Shown: positions 14,106-51,995, counted from the first letter of the stretch. The stretch is 64,000 nt of DNA from an uncultured Candidatus Saccharibacteria bacterium (GCA_964487045.1 CAZAOT010000001.1:4875-68874); one strand, 5' to 3'. A program made the numbers and translations. The notes: a model not told the origin generated them from the letters alone.

Positions 14106-15098
14106 ATGAAGATTGTTACCTCTATAAATCGTATAATAAAGAAAGCTCTGTACTGGAGCCCGGCGGCCCGTTTGTTTGCCAAGCGTGCAAAATATGGGAT
14201 TTTTGACTTTGAAGAAAGCTCAAAGGATATTCCGCTAAAATATTTTGAAGGCTATACCCCGTCGCTCGATATTTTTAATGATTTTTATGGTAATGCGCAT
14301 CAATTGAAAAGATTTGCTGGGCTGAGAGAAAATTATAGAATTCCATACCATGTCGAGCATGGAGTTTTTTTGGATAGATCTAGCTATCATGATGAGCTTC
14401 ATGGGCCTTACAAGAGAATATTAGTTGCTTCGGTGCACCGAGAGGAGGTACTTCGTGAAGAATATAATCGCTCGGCCTATCCAATTGGACCAATCATTGT
14501 TTATGCAAAATCTTTCTTATCAAAGGGTGAAACTGATTTGATAAGAAAAAAATCCGGTAAGACCTTGACGGCTATCCCAGTTCATTCAACCAAGACTGTC
14601 GATTATAGCTATGATGTTGATGGATATTGCAAGGACTTAAAGAAAATTGCTAAGGCAAATGATTTTAAGACAGTTAGGATTTGTCTCTTTTATGAAGATA
14701 TTCAAAAGAACTTACATAAAAAATATGAAAAGTATGGTTTCGAAATTGTGTCTGCTGGCCACATGTTTGATCCTTTGTTCTTGCCTCGATTTAGGTCTAT
14801 AATCGAAATCTCTGATGTTACTTGCTCTAATGCTATTGGCACGCACGTAGTTTATAGTGTGTCTCTTGGAATACCGCATTATTTAAAAAAGCAGTCTTTA
14901 GATTATGAGGATAATGGGGGCGAGATTAGTCAGGATGTATGGGAAGCATATTATGGAGAGACTGAATTGGCTAAAGCATTTGAAAAATATAGTGAAAAAA
15001 TTTCCAATCGGCAGCTAAAGCTGTTAGGCTATTACGCTGGGTTGGATAAGATAAAAACTAAATCTCAGCTAAGACAGCTTTTACTAAAAAAGAAATGA
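14106..15098 (+). CDS. hypothetical protein in glycan cluster
   Basis: 330 aa, AT-rich native codon usage. Its stop overlaps the flippase start (ATGA). No family recognised. Confidence 0.65.
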   Translation: MKIVTSINRIIKKALYWSPAARLFAKRAKYGIFDFEESSKDIPLKYFEGYTPSLDIFNDFYGNAHQLKRFAGLRENYRIPYHVEHGVFLDRSSYHDELHGPYKRILVASVHREEVLREEYNRSAYPIGPIIVYAKSFLSKGETDLIRKKSGKTLTAIPVHSTKTVDYSYDVDGYCKDLKKIAKANDFKTVRICLFYEDIQKNLHKKYEKYGFEIVSAGHMFDPLFLPRFRSIIEISDVTCSNAIGTHVVYSVSLGIPHYLKKQSLDYEDNGGEISQDVWEAYYGETELAKAFEKYSEKISNRQLKLLGYYAGLDKIKTKSQLRQLLLKKK

Positions 15099-16384
15099 AA
15101 AAATATTTAATTAATTTAGTGGAAAGAATTCATCTTCTTGTATTTTCTCACCCAATGTCCGATCGGATGAGAGGATTCTTGGTAAATTTATCATGGTCTT
15201 TCTTCGCTGGATTAGGAGTAATGTTTGTTACGATGCTGATTGGGACCTTGGCTGGTAGATTGATGGGCCCTGAGGAATTTGGAAAATTTAATCTTGTTGT
15301 ACTACTAAGCTCTTACGCGATTTTATTCATCTTTTTTGGTTTGGATATCTCAACGGTAAAAACAATCGTAAAATCGAAAAGCGACAAAGATAAAAAAACT
15401 GCTTTTTTTAGTTCGTTTGTTTTTATCTTCACAATGCTGGCGGTTCTAGCGATTATATCAATCGTATTTGGCGGGAAAATCGCCAGCCATTATCATATCG
15501 AAAAAATAATTATTTTATTTGCTGTTTTGTATACTGCGATGACGTCGGTCAAGTCAGTTTTGGATCTATTGGTTCGTGCGCTTGAGAATTTCAAACTTCA
15601 AGCTATTGGGAAAATGGTAGAGGTGGGGGCGATGTTGGTAGGCTTTATTTTTATCTACATCTTCCTTAAAGGAATGGACTATCGCTCTTATATCGCGATG
15701 GTTATCGCCGGGATCTTTTGCGTCTCAGTCTATTATCTCGTTTTCTTGCGAAAATTCTTCTCAGGATTTTCTCTTCCAGTGCTTGGTCGTCAACTTTCTG
15801 AGGGAAAGTTTTTCATGCTTTCCGCTCTTCTGGCAACCTTTTTTATCTCAGCCGATAGGTTATTGATCGCTAAATATATCGATCTTAAGACCTTAGGGAT
15901 TTATAGCGCATATTACTCAGGTTCATTTGCGCTAGTTCGAACTTTTTCTCAGTTATTTACCAATGTTCTTTTACCGGCTAGTGCCAAGGAAAAAGACAAA
16001 GCGTTTACGGTCAAGCTTGATCAACTAATGATTAAAGGTTTTGTACCTTTGTATCTAATTGTTTGCCTTGCCTTGGTTGTAGTTCTTAGTCTGTTTGGCA
16101 AGGAGTATCCGCTCAGATTAGACTATTTGTCTCTATTCGCTTTGGTGTCGACCCTATTCTTTTTCCAGTGCTTATACGACACTATCATCCTTGATTTACA
16201 TAAGAAAAAATATTTTATATATGTCTTGATATCGAACGTGGTTAACTTATTAACAGTGCTGGCTTATTATCTAATTCTAAGAAGTGCGCATAAATCAATT
16301 AGTTTTGTGCTAATAGGCTTTGCTCTTAATTTGATCGTAAGCATCTTAATTCAAAGAGTATTTGTAAAAAGGATGAGAGCTTAA
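15095..16384 (+). CDS. Wzx-like polysaccharide flippase (MOP superfamily)
   Basis: 429 aa, about 12 hydrophobic segments. Located in a glycan cluster. Confidence 0.75.
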   Translation: MKKYLINLVERIHLLVFSHPMSDRMRGFLVNLSWSFFAGLGVMFVTMLIGTLAGRLMGPEEFGKFNLVVLLSSYAILFIFFGLDISTVKTIVKSKSDKDKKTAFFSSFVFIFTMLAVLAIISIVFGGKIASHYHIEKIIILFAVLYTAMTSVKSVLDLLVRALENFKLQAIGKMVEVGAMLVGFIFIYIFLKGMDYRSYIAMVIAGIFCVSVYYLVFLRKFFSGFSLPVLGRQLSEGKFFMLSALLATFFISADRLLIAKYIDLKTLGIYSAYYSGSFALVRTFSQLFTNVLLPASAKEKDKAFTVKLDQLMIKGFVPLYLIVCLALVVVLSLFGKEYPLRLDYLSLFALVSTLFFFQCLYDTIILDLHKKKYFIYVLISNVVNLLTVLAYYLILRSAHKSISFVLIGFALNLIVSILIQRVFVKRMRA

Positions 16385-22496: not shown

Positions 22497-23195
22497 TCAG
22501 CCTGTTATCTTTCTGAATAACAATTTTGCCACTATGTTGATTCCGTTTAAAATTGACTGACCTTTTTTCTTGGAATATCGGCTGTAGATTACTTTGATCG
22601 GTACTTCTTTAATTTTAAGTTTATTTTTTGAGGCTTCCATGATTATTTCACTACAAAATTCATATCCAATTGTGTTGAGCTCGATCGTGTTTAAGGCTTT
22701 TTGTGAAAAGGCCTTAAATCCTGACTGTGAATCACTCGTCCATTTACGGGATAACGCATAGGTTATAAAATTTAGTCCAAAATTACCAATTTTTTTAATA
22801 ATAGGCATGCCTTTATGATTAAGCATTCTCGAGCCGATAACTAAGTCGGCTTTTTGATCTATAATCGGCTTGATCAGCTTCGCGATATCGGAAGGCGAGT
22901 GCTGACCGTCACCGTCAAACGTAACTGCGGCAGTGACGCTTAGGTCTTTTGCAAGCTTAAGTCCGGTTAGGGTGGCGCTCCCCGGCCCGAGGTTTATCGG
23001 TAAATTAAAACACATTGCTCGAGTGTTTTTGATTTCGAGCTCAGAGTTGTCAGTTGAGCCATCATTAATAGCAAGAATCGAAATCTTATTAATCCCTTCG
23101 ATTTTTTTGGGGAGACTTTCTATTACTTGCTTGATTACCTTGCCTTCATTATAAACTGGAATGATGATAGCAAGATGAGTCTTAGCTTGAGGCAT
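22497..23195 (-). CDS. polyprenyl-phosphate glycosyltransferase (GT2, GtrB/Dpm1-like)
   Basis: 232 aa. AIIIPVYNEGKVI, NDGSTD and FDGDGQH motifs. Confidence 0.85.
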   Translation of the reverse strand: MPQAKTHLAIIIPVYNEGKVIKQVIESLPKKIEGINKISILAINDGSTDNSELEIKNTRAMCFNLPINLGPGSATLTGLKLAKDLSVTAAVTFDGDGQHSPSDIAKLIKPIIDQKADLVIGSRMLNHKGMPIIKKIGNFGLNFITYALSRKWTSDSQSGFKAFSQKALNTIELNTIGYEFCSEIIMEASKNKLKIKEVPIKVIYSRYSKKKGQSILNGINIVAKLLFRKITG

Positions 23196-24108
23196 TTTTG
23201 AAATATTCGATAGTTAGTTTTAGCCCCTCGTTTATTTCTACTTTTGGTTCCCAGCCCAATTCGTTTTTAGCTTTGTCTGCTGCAAGGCTACTATACATTT
23301 GCTCACCCGGTTTTCCTTCAGCGTGATTAATCTCGCTTTCGGACTGAGCGATCTTCTTCATTTCCTGCGCAAGAGAATTAATACTAATCTCGACACTTGT
23401 TCCGATATTGTATGAACCAGTCTTGTCGCTCTCAAGGGCTGCTAAATTAGCCGCTACAACATCTCCTACGTATACAAAATCCCTTGTTTGTTCTCCTGAT
23501 CCGTAAATTGTGCACTCTTCGTTCTTGATCATCTTCTGGCCGAATATTGCCACAACTCCTGCTTCGCCTTTTGGATTCTGTCTTGGTCCATAAACATTGG
23601 CGTAGCGTAGGCAAACAGCTTGAAGGTCTGAAGAAGCTGCGAAGTATGAGATGTATTTTTCAGCGAATAGCTTGTCGATGCCATAGGGACAAACTGGCTC
23701 CTCAGCCGATCCTTCAATGGTTGGTCTTTCAACTTTATCGCCATAAATTGCACCACCTGTTGAAGAAAAGACAAATTTCTTTGTGTTATTTTTGACAGCT
23801 AATTCAAGTAGATTGATTGTGCCGATGACGTTTATGCTCACATCGGTCTGGGGGTCTTCCGTCGAGAGTCGAACAGAAGCTTGAGCCGCAAGGTGACAAA
23901 TTGCTTCGGGGGAGAAGCCTTCAAATACCTTAGCGAGGGCATCCTTGTCGGTAATGTCGATTTCAAAGAATTTAGCCTTCTCGTTTAAGTTTTCTCTTTT
24001 TCCGGTTGATAGATTATCTACAACCGCGACCTCGTGATCACTCTGGATAAGTGCATCGACGAGATTCGATCCAATAAATCCGGCGCCTCCAGTAACTAAA
24101 ATTTTCAT
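23182..24108 (-). CDS. NAD-dependent sugar epimerase (UDP-glucose 4-epimerase family)
   Basis: 308 aa. GGAGFIGS motif and YGIDK (YxxxK). First gene of the minus-strand glycan operon. Confidence 0.85.
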   Translation of the reverse strand: MKILVTGGAGFIGSNLVDALIQSDHEVAVVDNLSTGKRENLNEKAKFFEIDITDKDALAKVFEGFSPEAICHLAAQASVRLSTEDPQTDVSINVIGTINLLELAVKNNTKKFVFSSTGGAIYGDKVERPTIEGSAEEPVCPYGIDKLFAEKYISYFAASSDLQAVCLRYANVYGPRQNPKGEAGVVAIFGQKMIKNEECTIYGSGEQTRDFVYVGDVVAANLAALESDKTGSYNIGTSVEISINSLAQEMKKIAQSESEINHAEGKPGEQMYSSLAADKAKNELGWEPKVEINEGLKLTIEYFKNASS

Positions 24109-24189
24109 AATTAAGCTCCCTCAAATTTATGAGTTCATCTTAGCTCTTTTCAGGAGTGATCGCAATAGAATAATCGGCGATGGTTTAGA

Positions 24190-24218
24190 TTGACTTGAAG
24201 CCGATATTATGTTATTTT
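24190..24218 (+). promoter_or_regulatory. putative promoter of GC-rich island 1
   Basis: TTGACT (24190-24195), 17 nt, then TATTTT (24213-24218). The -10 box is weak. The track ATG at 24209 lies inside this promoter. Confidence 0.35.
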
Positions 24219-24268
24219 TTTGTGTCAGGTTTTTTGCAGCCTGCATCACAGCAAGGGAGGGTTGTACC

Positions 24269-25675
24269 TTGAAACTTCGAGATTTGACTAGGGTTAGTAC
24301 GGCCGGTCAGCTTCATCATCTTCTGAGTAAGAAACGAACCCGCAATGAGAATGTCGAGCTGGGGGCTCTGCTCGAGAGTAATCTAGCGCTTGCCAGGCGA
24401 CTGGTCACCTTGGTGGCTGGCTCTGCTGACGCTAGTCTGGTCAAGATGTTCTCACCGATCTTCTGTCTGCTTTCGTCATCTTTGAGGGCGCAGATGATTG
24501 AGTCTTTCAAGCCGTTCAAGAGCAGAGAGTTTCTGTTCTTCGTCTCAAGTCTACCGGCCAAGGGGCTAAGGTACTTGATCAGGGCCCTCGATAAGATGTC
24601 GTCCGTTGACGACACGAGGTTTTGTCTCGGAAAGCTAGTCGTATCAGGCAATCCCGAATGGCCGGGTGTTATCGGCGAGGCTTTTTCGGACAAGGACCTT
24701 GACAGGTTGCGGGCGCGTGAGCCGATCTGTAGCGAACAATCAGAGGAATTCACTTCTCTACAGGCTATTACCTACATGATCGGTAGCTTGCTCTCAGCCA
24801 GCGTCATTCTTCTGCCGGTGTGTGGTCGGAATCCTCGACCCGAATACAACCTCGCTGGTTTCAAGCTGACAGAGATCAGGCCTCATGAGACATTGGTTAT
24901 GAATGGAGAGAAGTCTCAGAACCACTGGCTTCCTTGGGTATTTCAGACAGAGGAGGGAGTTGAGAAGGCGCTCCACTTACTCGAATTCCTCGTCGGCAGT
25001 CTGAGCCTCTGCGATCAGGGCAACGAGTTGCTCAACAGGATTGGTGACGATGCCGAAAGGATGCTGGTAGAGATCAGTGAGCGCTGGGAAGCAATCAAGA
25101 AAGGCGTGCATCGCTGGGTACTCCCAGATGGACAGATGAAGCTTCGGTTCGGAGGCGACTTTGTCTTCTGTGGCCTGATGGTGACAGAACTTCACCCCGG
25201 GAAGAAAGTACCCGAGATGACGGTCAGAATCGTACAGAATCGATTCGGTTACCTCAAGTTCAAGGATCGGCCTCTCGACGAGAATGGCCTTTTTAAGGAC
25301 ATGGACCTCGGTAAGCAGGTCGGACTGCTCGAACTTGGCATCAACCACAAGGTGGTCTGCTGGCTGGCTGATTACGCTTTGCGACCTTCAAACTACAAGC
25401 CAAAGAATGGTGAAGGCAAGAGTCTTGACCCGATCAAGGTCGCGTTTGGCGAAGGCAAGCTGCCTGCTGGGTTTCACCTTCCTGAGTATATGAATCTCCC
25501 GGACAAGATAAAGCAGAACGGCAAGCCTTACGAAGCCAGTGGCGATGCGAAGAAGCGCGCCGAAGCGCTGGGCTGGGCCGAGCCGACTGATGGTCAGACC
25601 TTTAGGATGTCGGGAGATCCTCTTAAGGAAGGCCTTGGCCTTCCGGAACCCCTCGACATCGTATATGATGTCTGA
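24269..25675 (+). CDS. orphan protein of GC-rich island 1
   Basis: About 468 aa from the TTG at 24269, preceded by GGGAGGG 7 nt upstream. G/C-ending codon bias unlike the flanks. No family recognised. Followed by a hairpin terminator. Confidence 0.7.
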   Translation: MKLRDLTRVSTAGQLHHLLSKKRTRNENVELGALLESNLALARRLVTLVAGSADASLVKMFSPIFCLLSSSLRAQMIESFKPFKSREFLFFVSSLPAKGLRYLIRALDKMSSVDDTRFCLGKLVVSGNPEWPGVIGEAFSDKDLDRLRAREPICSEQSEEFTSLQAITYMIGSLLSASVILLPVCGRNPRPEYNLAGFKLTEIRPHETLVMNGEKSQNHWLPWVFQTEEGVEKALHLLEFLVGSLSLCDQGNELLNRIGDDAERMLVEISERWEAIKKGVHRWVLPDGQMKLRFGGDFVFCGLMVTELHPGKKVPEMTVRIVQNRFGYLKFKDRPLDENGLFKDMDLGKQVGLLELGINHKVVCWLADYALRPSNYKPKNGEGKSLDPIKVAFGEGKLPAGFHLPEYMNLPDKIKQNGKPYEASGDAKKRAEALGWAEPTDGQTFRMSGDPLKEGLGLPEPLDIVYDV

Positions 25676-25690
25676 TATCTCTCTATCTCA

Positions 25691-25734
25691 AAGGGGCGCA
25701 CTGTCATCCGACAGGGCGCCCCTTCTCTTTTTTG
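25691..25734 (+). terminator. intrinsic terminator
   Basis: AAGGGGCGC (25691-25699) pairs with GCGCCCCTT (25716-25724), followed by CTCTTTTTT. Confidence 0.75.
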
Positions 25735-25742
25735 TAAAAAAA

Positions 25743-26318
25743 TTACAGACGAAAAACGCGAATTAGCTTTTCGCTGATTAACTCGCCACGTTCCAGTTTT
25801 TCCGGCAAGTATCGAAGTAAATAATTCCTAACTTCAGTCGAACTTTGGGTACCAAGGGGAATTGCAATTGGGGATTTGAAAAAACCAACTGGCTCGATAT
25901 ATAGAATTGATTTTTGCCCATGCTGGGCAATCCAAAATGACTTTAGCTCATAAAACGGAACATAATTTTCTCTTTGCAGCATTCCGCTCTCATCAATCGC
26001 AAATTCGTGAGTCTTAGGCTTCTCATGAGAAAGTTGGAAGGTAACGATGACTGCTAAAATGATTATTATTACTGGGAAAAAGTTACCGGTGTAGATCAAA
26101 ATCAGAGATAAAACCATCGAAACAAGCCCAACTACTAGTGACCAGTAAGGAGATCTTTCAAAAGTATAATAATCTGGTGCTCTCCAGCGCAATATTTTTT
26201 TGATATTACCAAGCTTGATCGGCCTTGGGGTCGTCTTTTTTTCTTCCGGCCTTTTGGAATCTTTTTTGGATTTTTGAGCCGGTTTCTTGGCTATTTTTTT
26301 GTCTTTTTCTTTGGCCAT
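25743..26318 (-). CDS. hypothetical membrane protein with Lys-rich N-terminus
   Basis: 191 aa, two central TM helices, AT-rich native composition. Confidence 0.65.
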   Translation of the reverse strand: MAKEKDKKIAKKPAQKSKKDSKRPEEKKTTPRPIKLGNIKKILRWRAPDYYTFERSPYWSLVVGLVSMVLSLILIYTGNFFPVIIIILAVIVTFQLSHEKPKTHEFAIDESGMLQRENYVPFYELKSFWIAQHGQKSILYIEPVGFFKSPIAIPLGTQSSTEVRNYLLRYLPEKLERGELISEKLIRVFRL

Positions 26319-27868: not shown

Positions 27869-29638
27869 ATGCAAGAGCTGGTGCTGTTTGTTGCTGTAAT
27901 CGGCTATCTGATCGGGTCGATACCGATCGGCTATCTGATTGGCAAGAAGTTCGGCGTGAATCTTCTCGAAGAAGGGTCTAAGGCGATCGGCCGGACCAAC
28001 CTCGAGCGGGTTCTCGCGCCGATCATCGGCGCCAAGCGCGCCAAGCTCTGGGGTTATATCGGCGAGGCAGGCGACCAGCTCAAGGGACTCGTCCCAATTC
28101 TGATTGGTATGCTTCTGCTTCGTCTTGACCCCATCTCGCTCGCTGTCCTCGCTACTTCGCTCATTCTCGGCCACTGCTACTCTGCGTTTCTTTTCTTCAG
28201 GGGTGGCAAGGGAGTCGCGACGACGATGGGCATCGTGCTTGCTCTTTGCTGGTACATCGCTGTGCCATGCTACGTGTTCTGGTTTGCCGCCAAGAAAGCG
28301 CTCGAGACCAAGACGCAGGAGGCAACCGCACTCGCTTCGATTCGCGGAGGTCTTCTGGTTGGTGTTCTGGGAGTCATGGTCACGCACGACCTGGCCATGC
28401 AGATCTTCTTCGCCTTTGCTGCGCTTCACATCGTTTTTGCTCACCGCGAGAACCTGAAGCGCTACAGGCAGGAACAGCTGCAGAAGAAGCTTGAGAAAGC
28501 AAGCTTCCCGGACGATATGCCGACCGGTGTATTCATCACCGATGCGGCTACGAACAATCCTGAGACGGTCAAGCGGCTTCTGATGCAAAAGAAGAAGTTC
28601 GCCTGGCTCGTCAACCTCTTTCCGGCCCAGTTCGTCTGCGACGTGATTCTCCCCATCATCCCGATGAAGTACCTGAAGATGGGCGAGGTCATCCTCGAGA
28701 ATGATCTTGGGGCCAAGGTCAGAGTTGTGACCTGGGGCTACCCGGACATCCCAAGACGAATGATGGAGAACCCGGGCCGTACGATCTCGAGGCTACTTGA
28801 TCTTTGTTCATACGTCGAGTCGCTTGGTGCAGACGACATCTGCCTTGGCGCCAACACAGCCAGTGTCGGCGACAAGGGAGCAACGCTTCAGCAGTTTGCC
28901 CAGTCGATCACGAACGGCAATCGCCTAACCTGCGTCTATGCGGTTAAGGCTGCTCTCAAAGTGCTAGACACAATGCTAATCCCTCGAGGAACCGCTGTAG
29001 CAACTGTGGTTGGCAGTGGCGGCTCAGTAGGAGATGGCGTGTGTCAGCTTCTGCTCAAGGCCGGTATCGGACGCCTGTATTTGGTTGGAAGCACTCTTGG
29101 TAAACAGGCTGGTCAGGCAACTGAGCTCTCGAGGCGTTTTGGGGTTCCGGTTGAAGAACTGGGACTAATGGACGCCCTCTCGCGAAGTCATCTGGCCATC
29201 TTTGCCTCTAGTGGTACGGCCAGAGAGAACGCGCACAAGATCAATCCCGAGGCGCTTCCAGCAGGCTTGATTGTCGTTGACATGGAACGCCCGCGCGAGA
29301 TCTCAAAGATGCTTGCCGAGTATGTGTGGCTTCTGCCGAACGATGGTGGCATGGTTGCTATCGAAGGAACGGGCAAGGCTGGGACTGGCTTGCCTGAAGG
29401 CGTTTACTTCCCTTGTTTCAGCGAACTAGCCTTGCGCCTCTTCCGCGGAATCAGGACGAAGTGGTGCTATCCAGCTACTCTCGAGGAATTGAGGGAGGTT
29501 TGGGAAGCGGCTGAGGAGGAAGGCTTCTCTCTAGCTGGTCTGCGTCTTAATGAGCAGCCAGTTGAAGATCATGAGCTTGCTTTCCGTATCGAGCAAGCAG
29601 AGATGGCAAAAGCCTACAAACCCAGGAGGGTGACATGA
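27869..29638 (+). CDS. fusion protein: PlsY-like glycerol-3-phosphate acyltransferase + acyl-ACP-reductase-like NAD(P) domain
   Basis: 589 aa, GC-rich.
- Residues 1-200 are PlsY-like: YLIGSIPIGYLIGKKFG, GDQLKG, LGHCYSAFLFFRGGKGVATT, AHRENLKRY.
- Residues about 215-589 are collinear with cyanobacterial AAR recalled from memory: TNGN, VVGSGGSVG and YFPCFSE versus TTGN, VVGATGDIG and MFACFAE, which contains the catalytic Cys. Confidence 0.8.
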   Translation: MQELVLFVAVIGYLIGSIPIGYLIGKKFGVNLLEEGSKAIGRTNLERVLAPIIGAKRAKLWGYIGEAGDQLKGLVPILIGMLLLRLDPISLAVLATSLILGHCYSAFLFFRGGKGVATTMGIVLALCWYIAVPCYVFWFAAKKALETKTQEATALASIRGGLLVGVLGVMVTHDLAMQIFFAFAALHIVFAHRENLKRYRQEQLQKKLEKASFPDDMPTGVFITDAATNNPETVKRLLMQKKKFAWLVNLFPAQFVCDVILPIIPMKYLKMGEVILENDLGAKVRVVTWGYPDIPRRMMENPGRTISRLLDLCSYVESLGADDICLGANTASVGDKGATLQQFAQSITNGNRLTCVYAVKAALKVLDTMLIPRGTAVATVVGSGGSVGDGVCQLLLKAGIGRLYLVGSTLGKQAGQATELSRRFGVPVEELGLMDALSRSHLAIFASSGTARENAHKINPEALPAGLIVVDMERPREISKMLAEYVWLLPNDGGMVAIEGTGKAGTGLPEGVYFPCFSELALRLFRGIRTKWCYPATLEELREVWEAAEEEGFSLAGLRLNEQPVEDHELAFRIEQAEMAKAYKPRRVT

Positions 29639-30804
29639 ACAGTAGGGTGGCCGTGCTTGGAGCGGGCCAGTTTGGCTTTGCTCTTGCTTGCCGATTGGCT
29701 CAAGGCGGGATAAAGACGGTTCTGTGGGGCCGTAGTCCGCATATTCTCAGCGGTCCGCGGGCAGTCTCACAGCGGTTCAGTGGTGGATCGCCGCCCCTTG
29801 GGCTTCAAGTTACTGGCGGATCAGGTCTTCCCAGCCTGGATGACTTTGACCTGGTCTTTGTCGCCACTGATTCTTCTGGACTCGCTGAGCTAGTCCCGAT
29901 GATCGCCCAGAGTGATATTGGCGATACGCCGGTTCTTCTTGTCCAGAAGGGTCTTGTGAATGGTGTCTCTCCCGTGGAATTCGCTAGCGCCGCCGGACTT
30001 AACGCCGGTTCGTTTACCGGCGCGGCCTTCGCAAGTGACATCTATCTCGGCTCTGAGGCGATGATGATCGTCGCAGCCGAGGACGTTACCCTCTGCATTA
30101 CAGTGATGGAGCTGCTTAAGCCCCTTAAGTTCTGGATAACTGCATGTAGTGATCCAGACGCGATCTGCGCTGCCAACGTAGCGCGAACGATCACCTCGAT
30201 CGAGATGGGTATTGTCAGCGGCTTCGCGGACTACTTGCAGCGCCAATCAAAGTATGCACTGGTGCCGCATAGGTCGCCTGACTTTACTCCAACCGAGATC
30301 GCGGCGGCCACCGCTAGCATCCAGTACGAGTGGCGGGTTGTCTCAGCGATGCTTAGTCCGGTGATTAACTCCTTGCTCTATCCAGAAGTAGTCTCGGATG
30401 ATGTTTCGATCGTGCGCAACATCAATCGCGAGCGCATTCTCAGGGTCCTTTCCGCTGACAACTACCTCTGCAGCGGGATGATACTCGACCGTAACGACAG
30501 GGGAGGAGATTCTCGGGTGACTCTGGGTCTTCCTCTCGCCACACCGGTCTCGCGCAACTGGCGGTTTGGCTATGCGCTTGGCTGCTGGCGTTATGTCCCG
30601 GATGCCATAAGGGCGGTTGCTGACCTTGGAGTGATCCAGGGGCAGCAGAACGCTCTTGATCTATACAAGCGGTTCGGTGCGAGCGCCCCGCCGTTTCTCA
30701 CCTCCCTTGGCCGAATCTTGACTGAAGTGTCAAAGGTCGAGGAGGAGATCCAGGTCATTCGCGATCGTCGCGATGCCTGGTATGAAAAGTACGCTTCTAG
30801 CTGA
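29635..30804 (+). CDS. divergent GpsA-like NAD(P)H-dependent glycerol-3-phosphate dehydrogenase homolog
   Basis: 389 aa, GC-rich. VAVLGAGQFGFALACRLAQGG...VLWGR aligns with the GpsA N-terminus, and further blocks are collinear (VLLVQKGL; FTGAAFA). ATGA overlap with the upstream fusion gene. Confidence 0.65.
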   Translation: MNSRVAVLGAGQFGFALACRLAQGGIKTVLWGRSPHILSGPRAVSQRFSGGSPPLGLQVTGGSGLPSLDDFDLVFVATDSSGLAELVPMIAQSDIGDTPVLLVQKGLVNGVSPVEFASAAGLNAGSFTGAAFASDIYLGSEAMMIVAAEDVTLCITVMELLKPLKFWITACSDPDAICAANVARTITSIEMGIVSGFADYLQRQSKYALVPHRSPDFTPTEIAAATASIQYEWRVVSAMLSPVINSLLYPEVVSDDVSIVRNINRERILRVLSADNYLCSGMILDRNDRGGDSRVTLGLPLATPVSRNWRFGYALGCWRYVPDAIRAVADLGVIQGQQNALDLYKRFGASAPPFLTSLGRILTEVSKVEEEIQVIRDRRDAWYEKYASS

Positions 30805-38244: not shown

Positions 38245-38321
38245 GCACCCGTAGCTCAGCTGGATAGAGCGTTGGCTTGCGGAGCCAAAGGTCGTAGGTT
38301 CGAATCCTATCGGGTGTACCA
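38245..38321 (+). tRNA. tRNA-Arg (anticodon GCG)
   Basis: 77 nt. Acceptor GCACCCG/CGGGTGT, D arm with A20, anticodon arm TTGGC-TTGCGGA-GCCAA, T arm GTAGG-TTCGAAT-CCTAT, encoded CCA. Its last 6 nt are also the first 6 nt of IR-A. Confidence 0.9.
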
Positions 38322-39776
38322 GTACGGAAATGTCAAATTTTGGGAGTTTGCGCCGCCTGCGGCGGCGACTAAATTGTAGGGAATTTTTGCTTCAAAATGC
38401 CACTTTCGATTCTGTAAGAAATGGTTCGAGCCGATATTTTTGAGAAATGTTAGAATTTCCGAATAATCTTCGGAATTTTTTAGTTTATCTGCTTTGGCAA
38501 GCGATAAAATGAACTCTTTGGCCGGTTCGAGCCAAGACAATCCTTTTTGTTCAAAATCTGTAATTTTTTCGTTAATCTCCAGCTTTTCGCTAAGTAGCTT
38601 TTGTTTTCGCAAAGTATATTCTTCGGTTGTAATGACTTCGCTCAGATATACATCGAGTAATTTTTCAAGCTGTTTCGTAATTTCTTCGAGCTTTACTTTG
38701 AGATTTTGAACAGAAGTTTTAGCCAACGTTCTTGCTTGAGTTTCTTGTTTCTCTAATTCAAACAAAACTTTTTTGGTATCTTGGCTCGACAAAGAAACTT
38801 TTTGTAAATACCCATTTATTTGCTCAACGAGTTTTTCTTCTCGCAGATAATGCTTTTCTTGGCAACCACTTTTCTTTTTTGTGCATCGGTAATAGTTGTG
38901 GCCTTTTTGTATTTCGGCAGTAATCGCACAGCCGCAACTTTTACATTTCATAAGCCCAAGAAAAGCAAAATGATGTTTTTCCTTTTTGCGAGGCTTGCCA
39001 CGATCTTTCAATACTTCTTGGCATTTATCAAAAAGTTTCTTTGGGATTATCGGTTTGTGTTTTCCTTCGTATATTTCGCCGTTATATTTCATTAGCCCAA
39101 TGTAGAAAATATTTTGTAGAATTGAATTGATATTGCTGATAGAAATCCTCTTGTTGAGATTCCCGAATAACATGTCATCTTCCGCCCAATTTGCGAGAGA
39201 ATTAAAGGTATATTTGCCGGTTGAATAGAGCTCAAAAAGCTTTCTGACTTTTCTAACCTTTATTTCGTCGACATCAATATTTCTTGTTCTCGGATTATTT
39301 ATATAGCCAACCGGCGCCCAGCCGGGCCAAACTCCATTTCGTATTTTTTGCCTTAACCCTCGTTTTACATTCTCTCGCAAATTGTCTACAAAATATTTTG
39401 ATTGACCAAAAGCAATGTTCAACATGAAAATCCCTTGAGGTGTTGGTTCAAACCAGAACGAAGGAAAACACAAGGATTTGATTTTCTGCCGGTCTATCAT
39501 GTGGATTATCTTTCCACCGTCTACACTATTTCTTGCTAACCTGTCAGGGTGCCAACTCAAAATCCCTTCCGCCTTTCCTTTTTCGATCAATTCTAACATT
39601 TCAGCGAACTTCGTTCGACCAGGTTCTTTGGCAGTTTTGGCTTCGCACAGCGAAGCGACAATTTCAAGTTTTTCTTTGGCGGCAAATTCCCGAAGCTCAA
39701 CTAGTTGAGCTTCAATCGAAAGAACTTGTCTGTCATCATCTTCAGTACTTTTGCGAGCGTAAATTATGTAGCGCAT
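38307..39776 (-). CDS. large serine recombinase (integrase)
   Basis: 489 aa from the ATG at 39776 (RBS AAAGGAGG).
- MRYIIYARKSTEDDDRQVLSIEAQ resolvase catalytic domain (Ser10).
- Recombinase domain, zinc ribbon CKSCGC...YYRC...C, and a coiled-coil.
- AT-rich.
- The last roughly 36 codons lie in IR-A, and the stop lies inside the tRNA. Confidence 0.9.
   Translation of the reverse strand: MRYIIYARKSTEDDDRQVLSIEAQLVELREFAAKEKLEIVASLCEAKTAKEPGRTKFAEMLELIEKGKAEGILSWHPDRLARNSVDGGKIIHMIDRQKIKSLCFPSFWFEPTPQGIFMLNIAFGQSKYFVDNLRENVKRGLRQKIRNGVWPGWAPVGYINNPRTRNIDVDEIKVRKVRKLFELYSTGKYTFNSLANWAEDDMLFGNLNKRISISNINSILQNIFYIGLMKYNGEIYEGKHKPIIPKKLFDKCQEVLKDRGKPRKKEKHHFAFLGLMKCKSCGCAITAEIQKGHNYYRCTKKKSGCQEKHYLREEKLVEQINGYLQKVSLSSQDTKKVLFELEKQETQARTLAKTSVQNLKVKLEEITKQLEKLLDVYLSEVITTEEYTLRKQKLLSEKLEINEKITDFEQKGLSWLEPAKEFILSLAKADKLKNSEDYSEILTFLKNIGSNHFLQNRKWHFEAKIPYNLVAAAGGANSQNLTFPYWYTR
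38316..38415 (+). repeat. IR-A, left copy (100 bp)
   Basis: Manual base-by-base comparison with the reverse complement of 39817-39916 gives 98/100 identical (mismatches at 38398 and 38407). Contains the palindrome CGCCGCCTGCGGCGGCG. Confidence 0.9.
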
Positions 39777-39816
39777 TTTCCTCCTTTTAATTTCATAAAA
39801 ATTTTCTTTTACAATC

Positions 39817-39916
39817 ACAGAATCAAAAGTGGCAATTTGAAGCAAAAATTCCCTACAATTTAGTCGCCGCCGCAGGCGGCGCAAACTCCCAAAATTTGAC
39901 ATTTCCGTACTGGTAC
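39817..39916 (-). repeat. IR-A, right copy (100 bp, inverted)
   Basis: Reverse complement of 38316-38415 with 2 mismatches. Lies upstream of the recombinase start. Its outer 7 nt (CTGGTAC) are shared with IR-B. Confidence 0.9.
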
Positions 39917-40175: not shown

Positions 40176-40225
40176 AGCAGGAAAATCTCTGTACAGGCCA
40201 CAAGGCCGTGCAAGGAGTGAGAACA

Positions 40226-40846
40226 TTGTCTAAGGTCAACAGTATCCAGCTCACGTGTCTCAAGCCGAATGACTGTTCCACCCGACTTGCTCTTCCCGAA
40301 GTCACCTACGACTTTCGGGTGTGGGCTATCATCAACGACCTTGAGAAGGCCGTTGAGAAGGCGGGCGGTGCAACGCTCGCAGTCTTCGCGGGTGTTCCGT
40401 GGGAGTACGGGAGCCGCTCGGTCAACTTTCTCAACTATGTGGCCGAGATGGTGGTGAGAACAAACCGCGGCAAAGGGGAATTCATCGGAAGAAGCTATCT
40501 TGCGAGTGGCGGGATGTCACGGCTCGCAAGCTTGATGAAGGACGTTCGGCCAGACGGACAGATCAGAGCTGTGGTCGACCAAATCACGCGAACAATCTGG
40601 TCCGACCAGCCGATCCCGCGCGGTTTGCCCGACAATCTCTGGTACGAGCAGACGGACTACGAGTCGTTCTGCATCAAGTCGGGCAAAGGTGACATCATCA
40701 GGTGGGTTCCCGAGAATCAAGTTCAGGAGGAGCGGACGATGGGATTTCTCCGCTTGGAGTTTGAGGAGCCCTCTGTCAAGCACTTCTGTCAGCTAATTCA
40801 ACAGCTACATCGCTTTCCGGGTGTGGCCGAGTTCGCCAACGGCTAG
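40226..40846 (+). CDS. orphan GC-rich cargo protein of the recombinase element
   Basis: About 206 aa from the TTG at 40226 (AAGGAG 8 nt upstream); GTG at 40208 or 40217 are alternative starts. G/C-ending codon bias. No family recognised. Followed by a terminator. Confidence 0.65.
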   Translation: MSKVNSIQLTCLKPNDCSTRLALPEVTYDFRVWAIINDLEKAVEKAGGATLAVFAGVPWEYGSRSVNFLNYVAEMVVRTNRGKGEFIGRSYLASGGMSRLASLMKDVRPDGQIRAVVDQITRTIWSDQPIPRGLPDNLWYEQTDYESFCIKSGKGDIIRWVPENQVQEERTMGFLRLEFEEPSVKHFCQLIQQLHRFPGVAEFANG

Positions 40847-43750: not shown

Positions 43751-44179
43751 ATGTGTAAGAAACTGATATTTGCTAGTACGCTGGCACCGAAACTCTACTG
43801 CTTGTGCACACCGAGTGAGGAGTTGCTGGAGGTCTTGCTTGAGCGTGCCAAGGACGATGAGTGTCGCGCCGAGCCACTTATGGTGGCCGAACAGGAGATC
43901 GAGTTCGGGCCAGCCAACTATCTTTATGACGAGGCCCGCATGCGCGTCTGTGAGGCTAGTGCAGGCATGGCTACGGTCATGATCCAGGTCGGTAGTCATG
44001 CTGATGGAATTCGATCAGTGCTTGTGCCTGTTGGCGAGAAGGAGGGTGATGACGAAGCCCTGCCTGAAGGGGCTTTGATGCCAGGTATCGGTTGCCCGAT
44101 GGAATGTCTGCTGGGCCTGGGGCTGTTTTGTCTCGTGATCAAAGGCGGCATTTGCGCCGTCCATTATCTGCTCGGCTAA
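43751..44179 (+). CDS. orphan Cys-rich protein with C-terminal TM helix (GC-rich island 6)
   Basis: 142 aa. RBS GAGGAGAGAG. C-terminus GIGCPMECLLGLGLFCLVIKGGICAVHYLLG. Confidence 0.6.
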   Translation: MCKKLIFASTLAPKLYCLCTPSEELLEVLLERAKDDECRAEPLMVAEQEIEFGPANYLYDEARMRVCEASAGMATVMIQVGSHADGIRSVLVPVGEKEGDDEALPEGALMPGIGCPMECLLGLGLFCLVIKGGICAVHYLLG

Positions 44180-44200
44180 TGGCCGGGAGGGGAGTACAGC

Positions 44201-44512
44201 ATGTCTTTGTTTGGCAAAAAGGGAGAGCCGAAGCCGCCTAAGGTGAGGAAGGAGCGCAAGCCGCGCGCTCCGATCACCAAGGAGCGAGTCTTTGAAGGGT
44301 TGTTGGCTTTTGGCCGCAACCTGTTGCTGGTAGTGACCGTCGTAGGCATCTTGGCGCTCTCGGCGCTCGTCTACGTCCTGTTCCAGAAGATCGGCGGCGG
44401 CAGTAGCGACCCAGCAACGAAGAACCTGATTCTCGTCGCGACTGCGATGACGGCCGGAGGCGGCTTTTTCACGCTCTGGCTCGGCCGCACCTGGGGCATC
44501 ATCCCGTACTAG
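44201..44512 (+). CDS. orphan two-TM protein with Lys/Arg-rich N-terminus (GC-rich island 6)
   Basis: 103 aa. RBS GGGAGGGGAG lies 6 nt upstream of the ATG. Followed by a strong terminator. Confidence 0.65.
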   Translation: MSLFGKKGEPKPPKVRKERKPRAPITKERVFEGLLAFGRNLLLVVTVVGILALSALVYVLFQKIGGGSSDPATKNLILVATAMTAGGGFFTLWLGRTWGIIPY

Positions 44513-44535
44513 GGCTGATGCCTGCGAGCATCTTT

Positions 44536-44576
44536 GGCGGTTTGTCCGGTCACCCGGACAAACCGCCTTCTTTTTT
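44536..44576 (+). terminator. intrinsic terminator
   Basis: GGCGGTTTGTCCGG (44536-44549), loop TCAC, CCGGACAAACCGCC (44554-44567), then TTCTTTTTT. Confidence 0.85.
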
Positions 44577-44582
44577 AAAAAC

Positions 44583-44603
44583 AAAAAAATCGCCCTTTGG
44601 CGA
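44583..44603 (-). terminator. intrinsic terminator of the valS-TPR operon
   Basis: TCGCC (44590-44594) pairs with GGCGA (44599-44603), with a T7 run on the minus strand. Confidence 0.5.
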
Positions 44604-44644: not shown

Positions 44645-45286
44645 TTATCCTCCAATTTCAGTCTCGAAACCAAATTGTTTGGCTTTGGCGAACTCCTTCT
44701 TGGCGGTTGTATTGTCTTTTAGCTCTTGATAGGTGAGGGATAGAAGATAATGGGCTTGGCCGCAAAGAGGATCGATTTTAAGAGCTTGCTCGAAGGCCGT
44801 TTTAGCCTCATCAAATTTGTTAGCAACCAGAAGAACATGGCCTTGATTGATATATCCATCGCGCCACGAAGCATCTTTTTCAACTGCCAATCTTGCCGCT
44901 GCTTCGGCTCGTTCTACGTCTTTATTTTTCAAAAACTGCTCAGAAAGGGCGACAAATCCTAGGGCATCAGTAGCCTGCGAAGCAACTTCTGCTTTAATTT
45001 TAGTAATATGCTCTTCATAGGTTTGTTTTTGCGCTACCATTGCCGCTTCGTTTGATTTGGCCGAGTATTCATAAACTGACTTAATACCAATATAACTCAT
45101 CACGATCAAGGCAAAGACTCCAAGAACCAAACCGATGCCCTTAAAGGGCACCTTTTTCAAATTTATCGAAGTTATTAGGTCAATTGGCGAGTATTTAAAT
45201 GAAGAAAAAGAGGTAGCTGATTTTCGGTTGTGATGTAATTCGGCTTTTAATTGAGCCGAAAGATGATACGACTTTAGATTATTCAT
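44645..45286 (-). CDS. membrane-anchored TPR-repeat protein
   Basis: About 213 aa from the Met at 45286 (MNNLKSYHLS...); the longer track ORF would overlap valS. One TM helix and C-terminal TPR units (AKTAFEQALKIDPLCGQAHYLLSLTY). Confidence 0.7.
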   Translation of the reverse strand: MNNLKSYHLSAQLKAELHHNRKSATSFSSFKYSPIDLITSINLKKVPFKGIGLVLGVFALIVMSYIGIKSVYEYSAKSNEAAMVAQKQTYEEHITKIKAEVASQATDALGFVALSEQFLKNKDVERAEAAARLAVEKDASWRDGYINQGHVLLVANKFDEAKTAFEQALKIDPLCGQAHYLLSLTYQELKDNTTAKKEFAKAKQFGFETEIGG

Positions 45287-45321
45287 CCCCACCTTGTTAA
45301 GAATAAAAATTAAAAATTCGA

Positions 45322-47427
45322 TCAGAGAGCTGGCCAGGAAGCGTCGATGAGCATTTTGCTCTCTCGTTGCTCCTCGGGTAGCTCTTGCCAACATGCTTCA
45401 GTTACAAACGGCATGTATGGGTGAAGCAATTTCAAGCTTGTTTTCAATATTTTTGTAAGCTTTAAGAGAGACGTCTTTTTTTCTCGTTCATCGCCGCCAT
45501 AAAGACGTTTCTTTTCCTGCTCTATAATCTTATCAGCAAACTCATGCCAAATATAAGCGTACAAATGTTCGCCTGCTTGTGAAAATTTAAACTCATCGAT
45601 CAGTTTTGTAACTTCTGAAGTAACCTTATCCAGATTCTCTATATCTTTTTTATCTTGATCTGAAAAATTAGATTCCTCAGTATCAATTTCAATATTTTCC
45701 AGATTTGTTACTACAAATCTGGCAATATTCCAAATCTTGTTTGAAAAATTACGATACCCTCTGATTTTGCTTTCACCAAGGGCTATATCCTGACCTGCGG
45801 TAGTTCCGACAATCAAGGAATATCTCAGGGCGTCGGCGCCGTATTTTTCGATAATATCTATTGGATCAATCACGTTGCCAAGAGATTTGGACATCTTGCG
45901 ATTCTTTTCGTCCCTTACGAGGCCATGCAGGTAAACAGTCTCAAAAGGAGCTTTGCCTGTCAGCTCTAATCCCATCATGATCATCCTGGCGACCCAGAAA
46001 AACAAGATGTCATAACCTGTTTCCATGACTGTTGTTGGGTAGAAGTTCTTGTAATCTTCAGCATCTTTGTCTGGCCAGCCAAGAGTGGAGAATGGCCAAA
46101 GTCCACTTGAGAACCAAGTATCGAGTACATCTTCTTCTTGCACCCAGCCGTCACCCTCGGGAGCTTTTTTGCCAACATAAATTTCTTCTCCCTTATACCA
46201 AACCGGAATTTGGTGGCCCCACCAGAGTTGGCGCGAGATACACCAGTCGCGTATATTATCCATCCAATGGAAGTAAACTTTTTCAAAACGCTTTGGCATA
46301 ATTTTGATCTCGCCTGACTCCACCGTTTTTTTGGCTTTCTCGGTGAGTGGTTTCATCTTTACGAACCATTGCTTTGATGGAATTGGTTCAATTTGACCAC
46401 CGCAGCGGTAACAAGTGGCTATATTATGTTCGTAATTTTCTTCAATATGATCGATTAGACCCATTTTCTGCATATCTTCGACAATTGCTTCGCGAGCCTC
46501 CTTGGTCTTCATGCCGGTATATTTACCGGTGTTCTCCATCATGCGGCCGTTTTCGTCTATCACTTGTTTAAGTGGAATATCGTTGCGCTGAGCAATTTCA
46601 AAATCAACCAAGGAGTGAGCAGGGGTAACCTTGATCGCACCTGTGCCGAATTTTGGGTCGACGGCGTTATCAGCGACGACAACAATTTCAAAATCTCCCA
46701 GTACTCCCGGAATCATAAATTTCTTGCCAACCATATCCTTATATCTCTTATCGGTTGGGTGAACGGCGACTGCAGTGTCGCCAAGCTTTGTCTCTGGTCT
46801 AGCGGTAGCTAAGGTAAATGGACCATATTTAATCCAGTAGAATTTGCCAACTTCTGGTTTGTGCTCAACTTCATCATCGGCAATTGCGGTGTGGCAGCGG
46901 GGGCACCAGTTAACTGTGCGCAGCCCCTGATAAATAAGTCCCTTATCGTATAAATTTACAAATGCTTCTTTGACTGCTTCGGATAGTCCCTCGTCTAGGG
47001 TAAAGCGTTCTCTTGTCCAGTCACAGGAAGCACCAAGTTTTCTAATTTGAGAGGTGATAGTATTGCCGTATTCTTCTTTCCATTGCCAAACTCGCTCCAC
47101 AAACTTTTCACGTCCTAAGTCGTGTCGCCTCAAACCTTCTTTGGAAAGTTGCTTTTCGACAACATTTTGAGTGGCGATGCCAGCGTGGTCAGTTCCGGGA
47201 AGCCAAAGAGTTGGTTCTCCCCTCATGCGATGGTAGCGAGCCATAATGTCCTCGAGCGTTACGTACATACCATGGCCGATATGAAGTTTGCCGGTCACGT
47301 TTGGCGGAGGCATCGAAATAACAAAAGGTTTTTTACCTTCTTCTATTTTTGGAGTGAAGGATCCGCTATCTTCCCATTTTTTATATATTTCGTCTTCAAA
47401 AACTTTGTGGTTGTAAGCCTTATCCAT
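45322..47427 (-). CDS. valS: valine--tRNA ligase (short form)
   Basis: About 701 aa from MDKAYNHKVFEDEIY. PPPNVTGKLHIGH (HIGH), PGTDHAGIATQ and KMSKS motifs. Confidence 0.9.
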   Translation of the reverse strand: MDKAYNHKVFEDEIYKKWEDSGSFTPKIEEGKKPFVISMPPPNVTGKLHIGHGMYVTLEDIMARYHRMRGEPTLWLPGTDHAGIATQNVVEKQLSKEGLRRHDLGREKFVERVWQWKEEYGNTITSQIRKLGASCDWTRERFTLDEGLSEAVKEAFVNLYDKGLIYQGLRTVNWCPRCHTAIADDEVEHKPEVGKFYWIKYGPFTLATARPETKLGDTAVAVHPTDKRYKDMVGKKFMIPGVLGDFEIVVVADNAVDPKFGTGAIKVTPAHSLVDFEIAQRNDIPLKQVIDENGRMMENTGKYTGMKTKEAREAIVEDMQKMGLIDHIEENYEHNIATCYRCGGQIEPIPSKQWFVKMKPLTEKAKKTVESGEIKIMPKRFEKVYFHWMDNIRDWCISRQLWWGHQIPVWYKGEEIYVGKKAPEGDGWVQEEDVLDTWFSSGLWPFSTLGWPDKDAEDYKNFYPTTVMETGYDILFFWVARMIMMGLELTGKAPFETVYLHGLVRDEKNRKMSKSLGNVIDPIDIIEKYGADALRYSLIVGTTAGQDIALGESKIRGYRNFSNKIWNIARFVVTNLENIEIDTEESNFSDQDKKDIENLDKVTSEVTKLIDEFKFSQAGEHLYAYIWHEFADKIIEQEKKRLYGGDEREKKTSLLKLTKILKTSLKLLHPYMPFVTEACWQELPEEQRESKMLIDASWPAL

Positions 47428-47495
47428 AGGTTTAATATTAGCGCAATTCAAGGAGAAAACAAGATGAAACTGTGAAAGCTGGAAGCAATTAGTGA

Positions 47496-47524
47496 TTGAC
47501 TAATTATTACTCTTGAGCTATATT
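47496..47524 (+). promoter_or_regulatory. sigma70-type promoter of GC-rich island 7
   Basis: TTGACT (47496-47501), exactly 17 nt, then TATATT (47519-47524). Confidence 0.65.
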
Positions 47525-47575
47525 TTCAGGATTGAGTGCCCCTTATGGGGCCCAAAGGACATTGAGGTGATGGCG

Positions 47576-51538: not shown

Positions 51539-51551
51539 TCCCGAATCTTAC

Positions 51552-51592
51552 AAGGGACGCTCCGCCTTGTGCGGTACGTCCCTTTTCCTTTT
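51552..51592 (+). terminator. intrinsic terminator between convergent island-8 genes
   Basis: AAGGGACG (51552-51559) pairs with CGTCCCTT (51577-51584), followed by TTCCTTTT. Confidence 0.6.
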
Positions 51593-51648
51593 AAAAGTAA
51601 AACGCCCCCCGGACCGTTGGCTCGGGGCATGAGGTTGGCTGGCCGGTG

Positions 51649-51924
51649 CTACTTCTTCTTTGGCCACGCCGGGCAGAGGACGAAGGCAAGCAAGGTGAAT
51701 CCGAGCGCGATGGGCGTTCCGAGGAACGCCCAGGCGACCCCGCTCCATCCCCAGATGGCTCCGGCTGTGACGCACCACCCGATCCATCCGGCGATCCCGA
51801 TGACAAGGGTCCAGAGAATCTTGTCGCCGGCATGGCGGATCCTGGGACAACTTAGGCCGATGAAGACAGCGGCCAAGAGCAATCCCCCTCCAACCGAAAT
51901 CAATGCGGGTACCATCGCACCCAT
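51649..51924 (-). CDS. orphan Trp-rich three-TM protein (GC-rich island 8)
   Basis: 91 aa (MGAMVPALISVGGGLLLAAVFIGL...WIGWCVTAGAIWGWSGVAWAFLG...KKK); the start may be the second Met at 51915. Overlapping ORFs in other frames look like shadows. Confidence 0.6.
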   Translation of the reverse strand: MGAMVPALISVGGGLLLAAVFIGLSCPRIRHAGDKILWTLVIGIAGWIGWCVTAGAIWGWSGVAWAFLGTPIALGFTLLAFVLCPAWPKKK

Positions 51925-51966
51925 CCTTTCTGTTCTGTTGCCAGATTGTCAAAACGCGATCTGGAT

Positions 51967-51995
51967 ATACTAACTCAAGGACAGCTATATTGCAA
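51967..51995 (-). promoter_or_regulatory. sigma70-type promoter for the 51924-51649 gene
   Basis: On the minus strand: TTGCAA (51995-51990), exactly 17 nt, then TAGTAT (51972-51967). Confidence 0.55.

Follow-up and report, generated by a model that had tools for sequence, protein, structure and literature searches.

What is a GC-rich gene without recognizable relatives doing among AT-rich neighbors, and is it a recent arrival from elsewhere? The question is raised by an orphan protein of 468 aa encoded on the plus strand (24269–25675, stop codon included) of a 64,000-nucleotide stretch of DNA from an uncultured Candidatus Saccharibacteria bacterium (GCA_964487045.1, CAZAOT010000001.1:4875-68874), hereafter called the window. 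An earlier note, made from this DNA alone, had described the gene as a self-contained GC-rich unit with a single long ORF, and had taken it to be a foreign island that could serve as a handle on the donor lineage. Our results bear out the description, since the ORF has a GC content of 0.526 and its own predicted promoter, ribosome-binding site (RBS), and terminator. The foreign origin was not supported by the comparison with relatives, which were found only in the same chromosomal slot of related AT-rich genomes from within the candidate phyla radiation (CPR). Based on our findings, we propose, with a probability of about 0.5 for the reading as a whole, that this is an old, clade-restricted, fast-diverging accessory gene, whose soluble product would consist of a solenoid and a C-terminal module and would likely have a binding role.

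The ORF is open without interruption and offers two possible starts, an ATG at 24209 (488 aa) and a TTG at 24269 (468 aa). The TTG begins 8 nt downstream of the RBS AAGGGAGGG (24253–24261), within a plus-strand 5' leader (24222–24268) that also contains a small 5'-proximal hairpin (about 24222–24246) and the block GCAGCCTGCATCACAGC (24236–24252). Upstream of the leader, a consensus scan predicted a sigma-70-type promoter on the same strand (24190–24218), composed of a -35 element TTGACT at 24190–24195, a 17-nt spacer, and a TG-extended -10 element TATTTT at 24213–24218; we infer that this segment acts as the promoter of the orphan gene. A TTGAC, a spacer of 17–18 nt, and an A/T-rich -10 element also stand upstream of the orthologs at five related loci (L001, L003, L008, L010, and L006), while a leader of about 50 nt with GGAGG and the start context aTTGAAr are kept across six orthologous loci. 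Because promoter, leader, GGAGG, and aTTGAAr recur in this way, TTG 24269 is the right start, as the earlier note had read it. The database annotation begins at the ATG at 24209, which falls within the promoter, and the database start codon is wrong; a conserved-looking "REGC" preceding the start is the translated RBS and does not reflect conservation of the protein.

The leader sequence agrees with that of the L001 ortholog at about 90% identity, although the silent sites of the coding region are near saturation. Its block GCAGCCTGCATCACAGC occurs once in the window, the leader motif is absent from the window's other GC-rich islands, the thermodynamics of the leader hairpin are ordinary (z -0.1 to -1.4), and Rfam gave no match in the orphan region or in two other islands. 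At the 3' end lies an intrinsic terminator (25691–25735) with 15-nt arms (25691–25705 and 25710–25724; 93% complementary) followed by the T-tract CTCTTTTTTG. It is common to the orphan gene and a convergent 191-aa gene, and behaves as bidirectional. A 3' GC hairpin is kept at the orthologous loci, where the stem sequences differ in a compensating manner and pairing is retained. Over both GC junctions, the window sequence recurs with 100% identity in each of two independent same-strain assemblies; the island is therefore not an assembly chimera. Taken together, the orphan is a genuine, independently transcribed, monocistronic protein-coding gene. Between the window copy and its L001 ortholog, pN is 0.29 and pS 0.69, and the resulting dN/dS of about 0.19 indicates that the reading frame is under purifying selection.

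The searches for relatives covered about 15 billion proteins in all. The window protein had no match in Pfam, NCBIfam, PHROGs, or PADLOC at E values up to 10, nor did eight family members in the same four profile libraries at E up to 1, in keeping with the earlier statement that no domain is recognizable. A word-indexed search of 5.8 billion clusters returned the window protein itself and P0002 (57% identical) and nothing else, and the same kind of search with an eight-sequence profile added no members. When 1.84 billion representative proteins were searched exhaustively with a HMMER profile, seven matched, P0002 to P0008, with E values from 0 to 5e-4. The member at L017 was recognized by position alone and then scored 73.6 bits, with an hhalign probability of 98% over residues 23–440. 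The family thus comprises about nine members, and every one that could be placed is a positional ortholog in a related AT-rich CPR genome. Scanned with two peptide patterns, the GTDB species genomes yielded no member; the scans of GTDB, metagenomes, and viruses yielded no new locus apart from a duplicate of L004; and neither tblastn searches of phages and plasmids nor the viral contigs turned up a family member. Sequence-profile searches of the PDB with the full-length and C-terminal alignments returned noise only (E ≥ 0.17), no paralog is present in the window, and PADLOC-DB contained no defense component matching the window protein or any of the eight members. The sequence and profile searches thus gave no clear match to a common family, the outcome that the earlier note had named as refuting its reading. 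Our literature searches turned up no account of the orphan family, nor of CPR genomes with GC-rich islands. With homologs in a narrow clade only and a frame under purifying selection, the orphan can be classed as a taxonomically restricted gene. Orphan proteins are in general common in CPR genomes.

The position of the gene is as restricted as its distribution. On the left, the slot is bordered by a minus-strand gene for an NAD-dependent epimerase/dehydratase (23182–24108; Pfam PF01370, E 1e-67), and on the right by the convergent minus-strand gene for a 191-aa membrane protein (25743–26318), which has native AT-rich composition and is highly conserved. The earlier note had seen the convergent native gene correctly, but had placed the orphan at the end of a glycan operon; the epimerase gene is in fact the first gene of that operon and is transcribed divergently from the orphan. 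Epimerase orthologs, 53–71% identical, border the slot in L001, L008, L010, L015, and L017, and the 191-aa protein has 60–82% identity in L001, L003, L008, L015, and L017; in L011, where 26 of its residues can be seen, the figure is 54%. The 191-aa family comprises 81 clusters, some of them named Candidatus Berkelbacteria or candidate division WS2. Judging from such names on homologs of this neighboring gene, the host genomes are probably Berkelbacteria-like members of the CPR.

In the readable contexts of seven lineages, the orphan always lies between the 191-aa gene and the first gene of the glycan operon. The epimerase on the left and the 191-aa gene or its homolog on the right were seen in L001 and L008, and L017 likewise has the epimerase side to its left and the 191-aa side to its right. 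In L003, a remnant of an IS transposase abuts the unit on the left and the 191-aa gene follows on the right; in L010, the left side reads GT2, DUF2304, GT2, Avd, and epimerase, and the right side is the contig end; in L011, the 191-aa gene is on the right and the left side is not visible. These neighborhoods were read from about 10 kb per relative, and the sequences of L006 and L009 are too short for placement. The slot is not constant in content: it is empty in the P0015 genome, where a 133-bp gap is found; in L015 its occupant is an orphan of 343 aa, also GC-rich but not similar to the window family; in L017 a SpoVS gene, likewise GC-rich, and an orphan of 171 aa lie there in addition; and in L003 a further GC-rich orphan adjoins it. 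We tried the L015 protein as a diverged family member and rejected it (hhalign probability 0.1%). Flanking repeats around the orphan unit did not exceed chance-sized matches, no integrase is adjacent, and a distance of 12.6 kb separates the unit from the nearest recombinase and tRNA. The flanking genes owe their conservation to synteny and so give no clue to function. The co-occurrence with the PlsY fusion, which the earlier note had suggested as a check, amounts to conserved synteny only.

Within this slot, the orphan evolves much faster than its neighbors. Silent sites between the window and L001 are near saturation in all genes (pS 0.65–0.84). In amino-acid identity, the window protein shares 57% with L001 (flanks 71–82%), 33% with L003 (flank 73%), 27% with L008 (flanks 61–68%), and 26% with L010 (flank 58%). 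The pairwise divergence of the orphan correlates with that of the flanks (Pearson 0.77–0.85), a correlation driven largely by the closest pair, the window and L001. These coarse distance correlations, dominated as they are by that pair, would support vertical descent of the orphan; the variable occupancy of the slot is compatible with repeated exchange too.

The composition of the gene is what sets it apart most clearly. The ORF has GC1 0.573, GC2 0.391, and GC3 0.613, compared with GC 0.36–0.43 and GC3 mostly 0.35–0.45 in the 43 AT-type ORFs of the window, GC3 of about 0.38 in native genes, and GC of about 0.39 in the neighboring genes. In 200-nt segments, GC rises from 0.375–0.40 (24000–24299) to 0.51–0.57 within the ORF and is 0.42 by 25700–25899. 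Six further GC-rich stretches are present in the window (27869–30804, about 37.0–38.0 kb, 40208–40846, 43751–44584, 47513–48730, and 51548–51973), and the codon usage of the orphan is that of the other islands, with AAG at 0.88, CAG at 0.92, ATC at 0.71, and TAC at 0.78 and with A-ending codons avoided. The PlsY-fusion island is likewise syntenic and GC-rich in L001 (GC 0.574, 60% identity). The nine orthologs are GC-rich at all codon positions (GC1 0.58–0.71, GC2 0.38–0.49, GC3 about 0.62–0.79), the window copy having the lowest GC, whereas their native neighbors have GC1 0.44–0.51, GC2 0.32–0.37, and GC3 0.36–0.51. The orthologs share 25–57% of residues (25–35% at depth), yet they stay rich in GARP and poor in FYMINK residues (FYMINK 0.15–0.24, compared with 0.32–0.36 in the native neighbors). 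At conserved four-fold codons, the L001 and L003 orphans have an identity of 0.270, where 0.271 is expected from composition, in comparisons that rest on 74–127 sites. The four-fold sites of this pair retain no memory of the ancestral base, and GC4 is nevertheless 0.70 in L001 and 0.61 in L003 despite this randomization; given how few these sites are, slow decay from a donor that was itself extremely GC-rich (GC3 above 0.9) is still a remote possibility. Selection on codons or mRNA is one candidate for the force that keeps the composition; others are gene conversion biased toward GC, if the slot recombines, and repeated exchange with an unsampled GC-rich pool.

For the protein itself, we rely on an AF2 model built from an eight-member alignment (best pLDDT 85, pTM 0.74; the other four models 68–72); a model from two sequences was poor (pLDDT 48). 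In this model, residues 1–150 appear as a putative ARM-like helical solenoid, in which nine or ten helices are stacked on one another (4–148); residues 151–278 form an alpha/beta region (163–245) followed by two long helices (248–278); and residues 279–375 form a beta-beta-beta-alpha unit with strands at 303–336 and a 22-residue helix at 350–371. The remaining residues, 376–468, are a conserved tail that contains the strongest motif of the family, (R/K)LPxKIxxDGKPYxASxDAxxRAxxxGWxEPxxGxTF. With the whole-protein model, Foldseek gave no PDB or BFVD match below E 0.03, and the predicted C-terminal alpha/beta half, compared as part of that model, seems to match no solved structure. Residues W283, G288, P315, G340, G401, A427, P439, and T444 are invariant across the family, and none of the invariant positions is acidic, basic, His, Cys, or Ser; the alignment consists of few and highly divergent sequences, in which a catalytic residue could be misaligned. 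A PD-(D/E)xK-like pattern, PD287...E307xH309, was considered and rejected, as it is not conserved across the family. No signal peptide was detected, as the earlier note had also stated; its claim that there is no transmembrane segment needs a qualification, because residues 167–185 are borderline hydrophobic (Kyte-Doolittle 19-residue mean 1.94). In the model this stretch is part of the buried core, and it is weaker in the orthologs. The orphan protein appears to be soluble and cytoplasmic.

These results have to be weighed against other explanations of the locus. That stop-poor, GC-rich DNA is open here by mere chance could be argued from the long antisense ORFs in the GC-rich islands, for example at 24316–24753 and 24977–25348 on the minus strand; however, the low dN/dS, the confident predicted fold, and above all the conservation of frame, start codon, RBS, and stop position in nine lineages speak otherwise, and by sequence comparison the cross-lineage conservation of the frame refutes this explanation, to which we assign next to no probability. 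A recent foreign island from a GC-rich donor, not yet ameliorated, would fit the sharp composition boundaries, the self-contained unit, and its absence from one fairly close relative (the P0015 genome). But at least seven lineages, with silent sites at or near saturation, carry the gene in this one slot, all nine copies are as GC-rich as the window copy or more although 43–75% of residues have been replaced, and no donor homolog was found in any search. Because the composition persists across saturated silent sites and replaced residues, a recent import awaiting amelioration is untenable, and we consider it very improbable. It is easier to imagine that the slot is a hot spot of recombination or integration, where genes of a GC-rich accessory pool are repeatedly passed around within the clade or brought in anew from an element or host that is GC-rich and unsampled; the orphan's composition would then stay foreign through repeated exchange. 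The varying content of the slot (empty in P0015, another orphan in L015, extra genes in L017, an adjoining orphan in L003), the IS transposase remnant that abuts the unit in L003, the one codon usage common to all islands, and the lack of compositional decay all agree with such traffic. Arguing against it, no member was found in a GC-rich, viral, or plasmid context, the unit has neither flanking repeats nor an adjacent integrase, conservation of the flanks extends to the promoter, leader, and TTG start, and the divergence of the orphan roughly follows that of the flanking genes. We regard exchange at a hot spot as somewhat unlikely.

The remaining alternative concerns function: the C-terminal half could be a nucleic-acid-binding module, either a Rad52/ERF-like single-strand annealing domain or another beta-beta-beta-alpha module, in which case the target of the protein would be DNA or RNA and not another protein. 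The model has three strands followed by the 22-residue helix (residues 303–371), a topology compatible with that of Rad52/ERF proteins, both this region (residues 279–375, pI 9.0) and the solenoid (residues 1–150, pI 10.1) are basic, and 9 of the 50 best BFVD matches are ERF, Rad52, or recombinase proteins. Those matches, however, have E values of 0.1 or more, probabilities of at most 0.14, and TM scores below 0.25; no member has a Pfam or PHROG match to ERF or Rad52; and the beta-beta-beta-alpha motif is a common one. We consider such a module unlikely. As no residue of catalytic type is invariant, a binding or adaptor function is a better reading than an enzymatic one, and from the fold class together with this lack of conserved catalytic residues we infer, with low confidence, that the orphan product may serve as a binding or adaptor protein; the gene itself would be accessory in character.

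Our preferred reading of an old, clade-restricted accessory gene can then be put as follows. The family would be confined to Berkelbacteria-like CPR bacteria and would have resided in one slot since before the lineages split, being lost or replaced in some relatives. It would belong to a class of accessory genes, mostly orphans, that are GC-rich and avoid A at the third codon position among AT-rich core genes. The protein would most likely bind a partner as an adaptor or scaffold in a non-enzymatic manner. A wider proposal, which we advance tentatively and rate somewhat below an even chance, is that Berkelbacteria-like CPR genomes keep a second, stable compartment of fast-evolving accessory genes, mostly orphans and with the window gene as the clearest example, whose codons avoid A at the third position and whose GC3 stays at 0.6–0.8, as opposed to 0.35–0.5 in the core, for long enough that silent sites become randomized. 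A compositional compartment of this kind, extending across a clade, is the part that a specialist would find surprising. If it is true, it would imply selection on mRNA or codon composition that is specific to these genes, a strong local bias of gene conversion toward GC, or ongoing exchange with a GC-rich pool (host or element) yet to be discovered.

The orphan gene defines a new protein family, confined to poorly understood, ultra-small, and probably symbiotic bacteria, and its case means that recent transfer is not a valid reading of this genome's GC-rich islands. A class of genes that stands 13–20 GC points above the genome despite turnover of residues and silent sites runs counter to simple amelioration, and equally to the AT-richness that accessory genes usually have. 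Should the pattern extend to the whole genome, it would provide a handle on a selective or recombinational force that acts on composition, or on a hidden partner of CPR bacteria in gene exchange. Accessory genes are in general AT-richer than core genes (PMC5303225), and the pattern of the orphan is the opposite.

Several known systems resemble this locus in part. Integron cassettes are promoterless and carry attC with an integrase near, whereas the orphan has no integrase nearby and has its own conserved promoter and a 3' T-tract terminator. In the amelioration framework of Lawrence and Ochman, compositional genomic islands result from horizontal transfer. The orphan shares with transfer islands the sharp breaks in GC and codon usage and the possession of its own promoter and terminator, but it has no mobility genes, flanking repeats, or donor homologs, it is syntenic at silent saturation, and it does not decay toward the host value; of five features that mark a recent transfer island, it has atypical composition and lacks the other four. 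GC-biased gene conversion would raise GC, and GC3 most, in accessory loci that recombine often, and would maintain it indefinitely. Lassalle et al. (2015) reportedly observed such conversion at recombining bacterial loci with effects of a few GC3 points, whereas the GC3 excess of the orphan is 20–30 points. On the side of the protein, the ARM/HEAT scaffolds (beta-catenin, 2z6g; the SARM1 ARM domain, 7lcy; the ZNFX1 ARM domain, 9eve) have a sequence identity of 5–14% to the orphan. This likeness is generic to helical repeats, is confined to the N-terminal third, and concerns a predicted fold; the orphan has no Pfam Arm or HEAT match, and its C-terminal two thirds have no counterpart in these scaffolds. 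As for bacterial ORFans, the orphan shares with them a narrow clade, the lack of an annotated domain, faster evolution than that of core neighbors, and a patchy presence in a variable slot. ORFans are usually short, as Daubin and Ochman are said to have found in 2004. Compared with ORFans, the window gene is long (468 aa), has a confident predicted fold, and stands 13 GC points above the core, and it keeps its GC-rich composition in positional orthologs across deep divergence.

The slot between the gene for a 191-aa membrane protein and the epimerase gene of the glycan operon, in which the orphan (the GC-rich 468-aa gene of the window) lies, is a recurrent site of GC-rich genes in related genomes. 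More GC-rich genes (GC 0.55-0.64) were found amid AT-rich neighbours at four loci of these genomes: L015 (6991-8022), L017 (6662-6919, 8751-9266 and 10761-11609), L001 (650-1594) and L003 (2536-3093). Among these further genes, the only Pfam match was that of a SpoVS homolog, whose GC3 is 0.86.

The PlsY-fusion unit of the window can be set beside the orphan. This two-gene GC-rich unit (27869-30804) encodes a 589-aa fusion, of which the PlsY domain forms the N-terminal part, followed by a 389-aa GpsA-like dehydrogenase, and is closed by a strong terminator. In L001, the PlsY fusion (14542-15804) keeps its synteny at 60% identity and is equally GC-rich (GC 0.574); its GC-rich persistence is the same as that of the orphan.

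The conserved start of the orphan is TTG 24269. The database version of the protein (P0001, 488 aa) starts from ATG 24209, which falls between the -35 and -10 elements, directly 5' of the -10 box (24213-24218). The annotations of two relatives, P0004 and P0005, are too short, and their true TTG starts lie further upstream in L006 and L008. The epimerase start is preceded by an 18-nt block, TTTCAGGAGTGATCGCAA (24149-24166), which is identical in the window and in L001; together with a stretch within the epimerase gene (24036-24054) it makes up an imperfect inverted repeat, and this block may be a regulatory site for the glycan operon.

Elsewhere in the window, a 400-nt segment of GC 0.60 (51548-51973) reads open on both strands and drew no match from Pfam or from Rfam, even with E up to 1; the segment is either a further orphan or an undescribed RNA. 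Of the 860 profile positions, the valine-tRNA ligase ORF (within 44645-47451; 709 aa) accounts for 1-696 only, and an adjacent 249-aa ORF overlaps its end, so that a split or a frameshift in this gene is possible; directly downstream of this region is a GC-rich segment (43751-44584). Two giant ORFs side by side (52712-63063; 1967 and 1487 aa) have an unusually high second-position GC (0.48) and a low GC3 (0.35), and near the same neighbourhood relatives encode proteins of 1867-1927 aa with fn3 and Pur_ac_phosph_N matches.

An AT-rich gene for a large serine recombinase (38245-39902; 531 aa, CcrB/XisF-like) adjoins tRNA-Arg(GCG) and is flanked on both sides by GC-rich segments (37.0-38.0 kb and 40208-40846), whose ORFs are without Pfam match; with these flanks, the region may be an integrated element. 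In L003, the epimerase is replaced as left neighbour of the orphan by the C-terminal end of a transposase of rve type (IS3/IS481-like; 1-130), which abuts the orphan promoter on the upstream side. Close to the slot, two relatives carry Avd-like genes (bAvd/23S_rRNA_IVP; L010 8443-8838 and L015 1989-2339); Avd proteins are accessory to diversity-generating retroelements.
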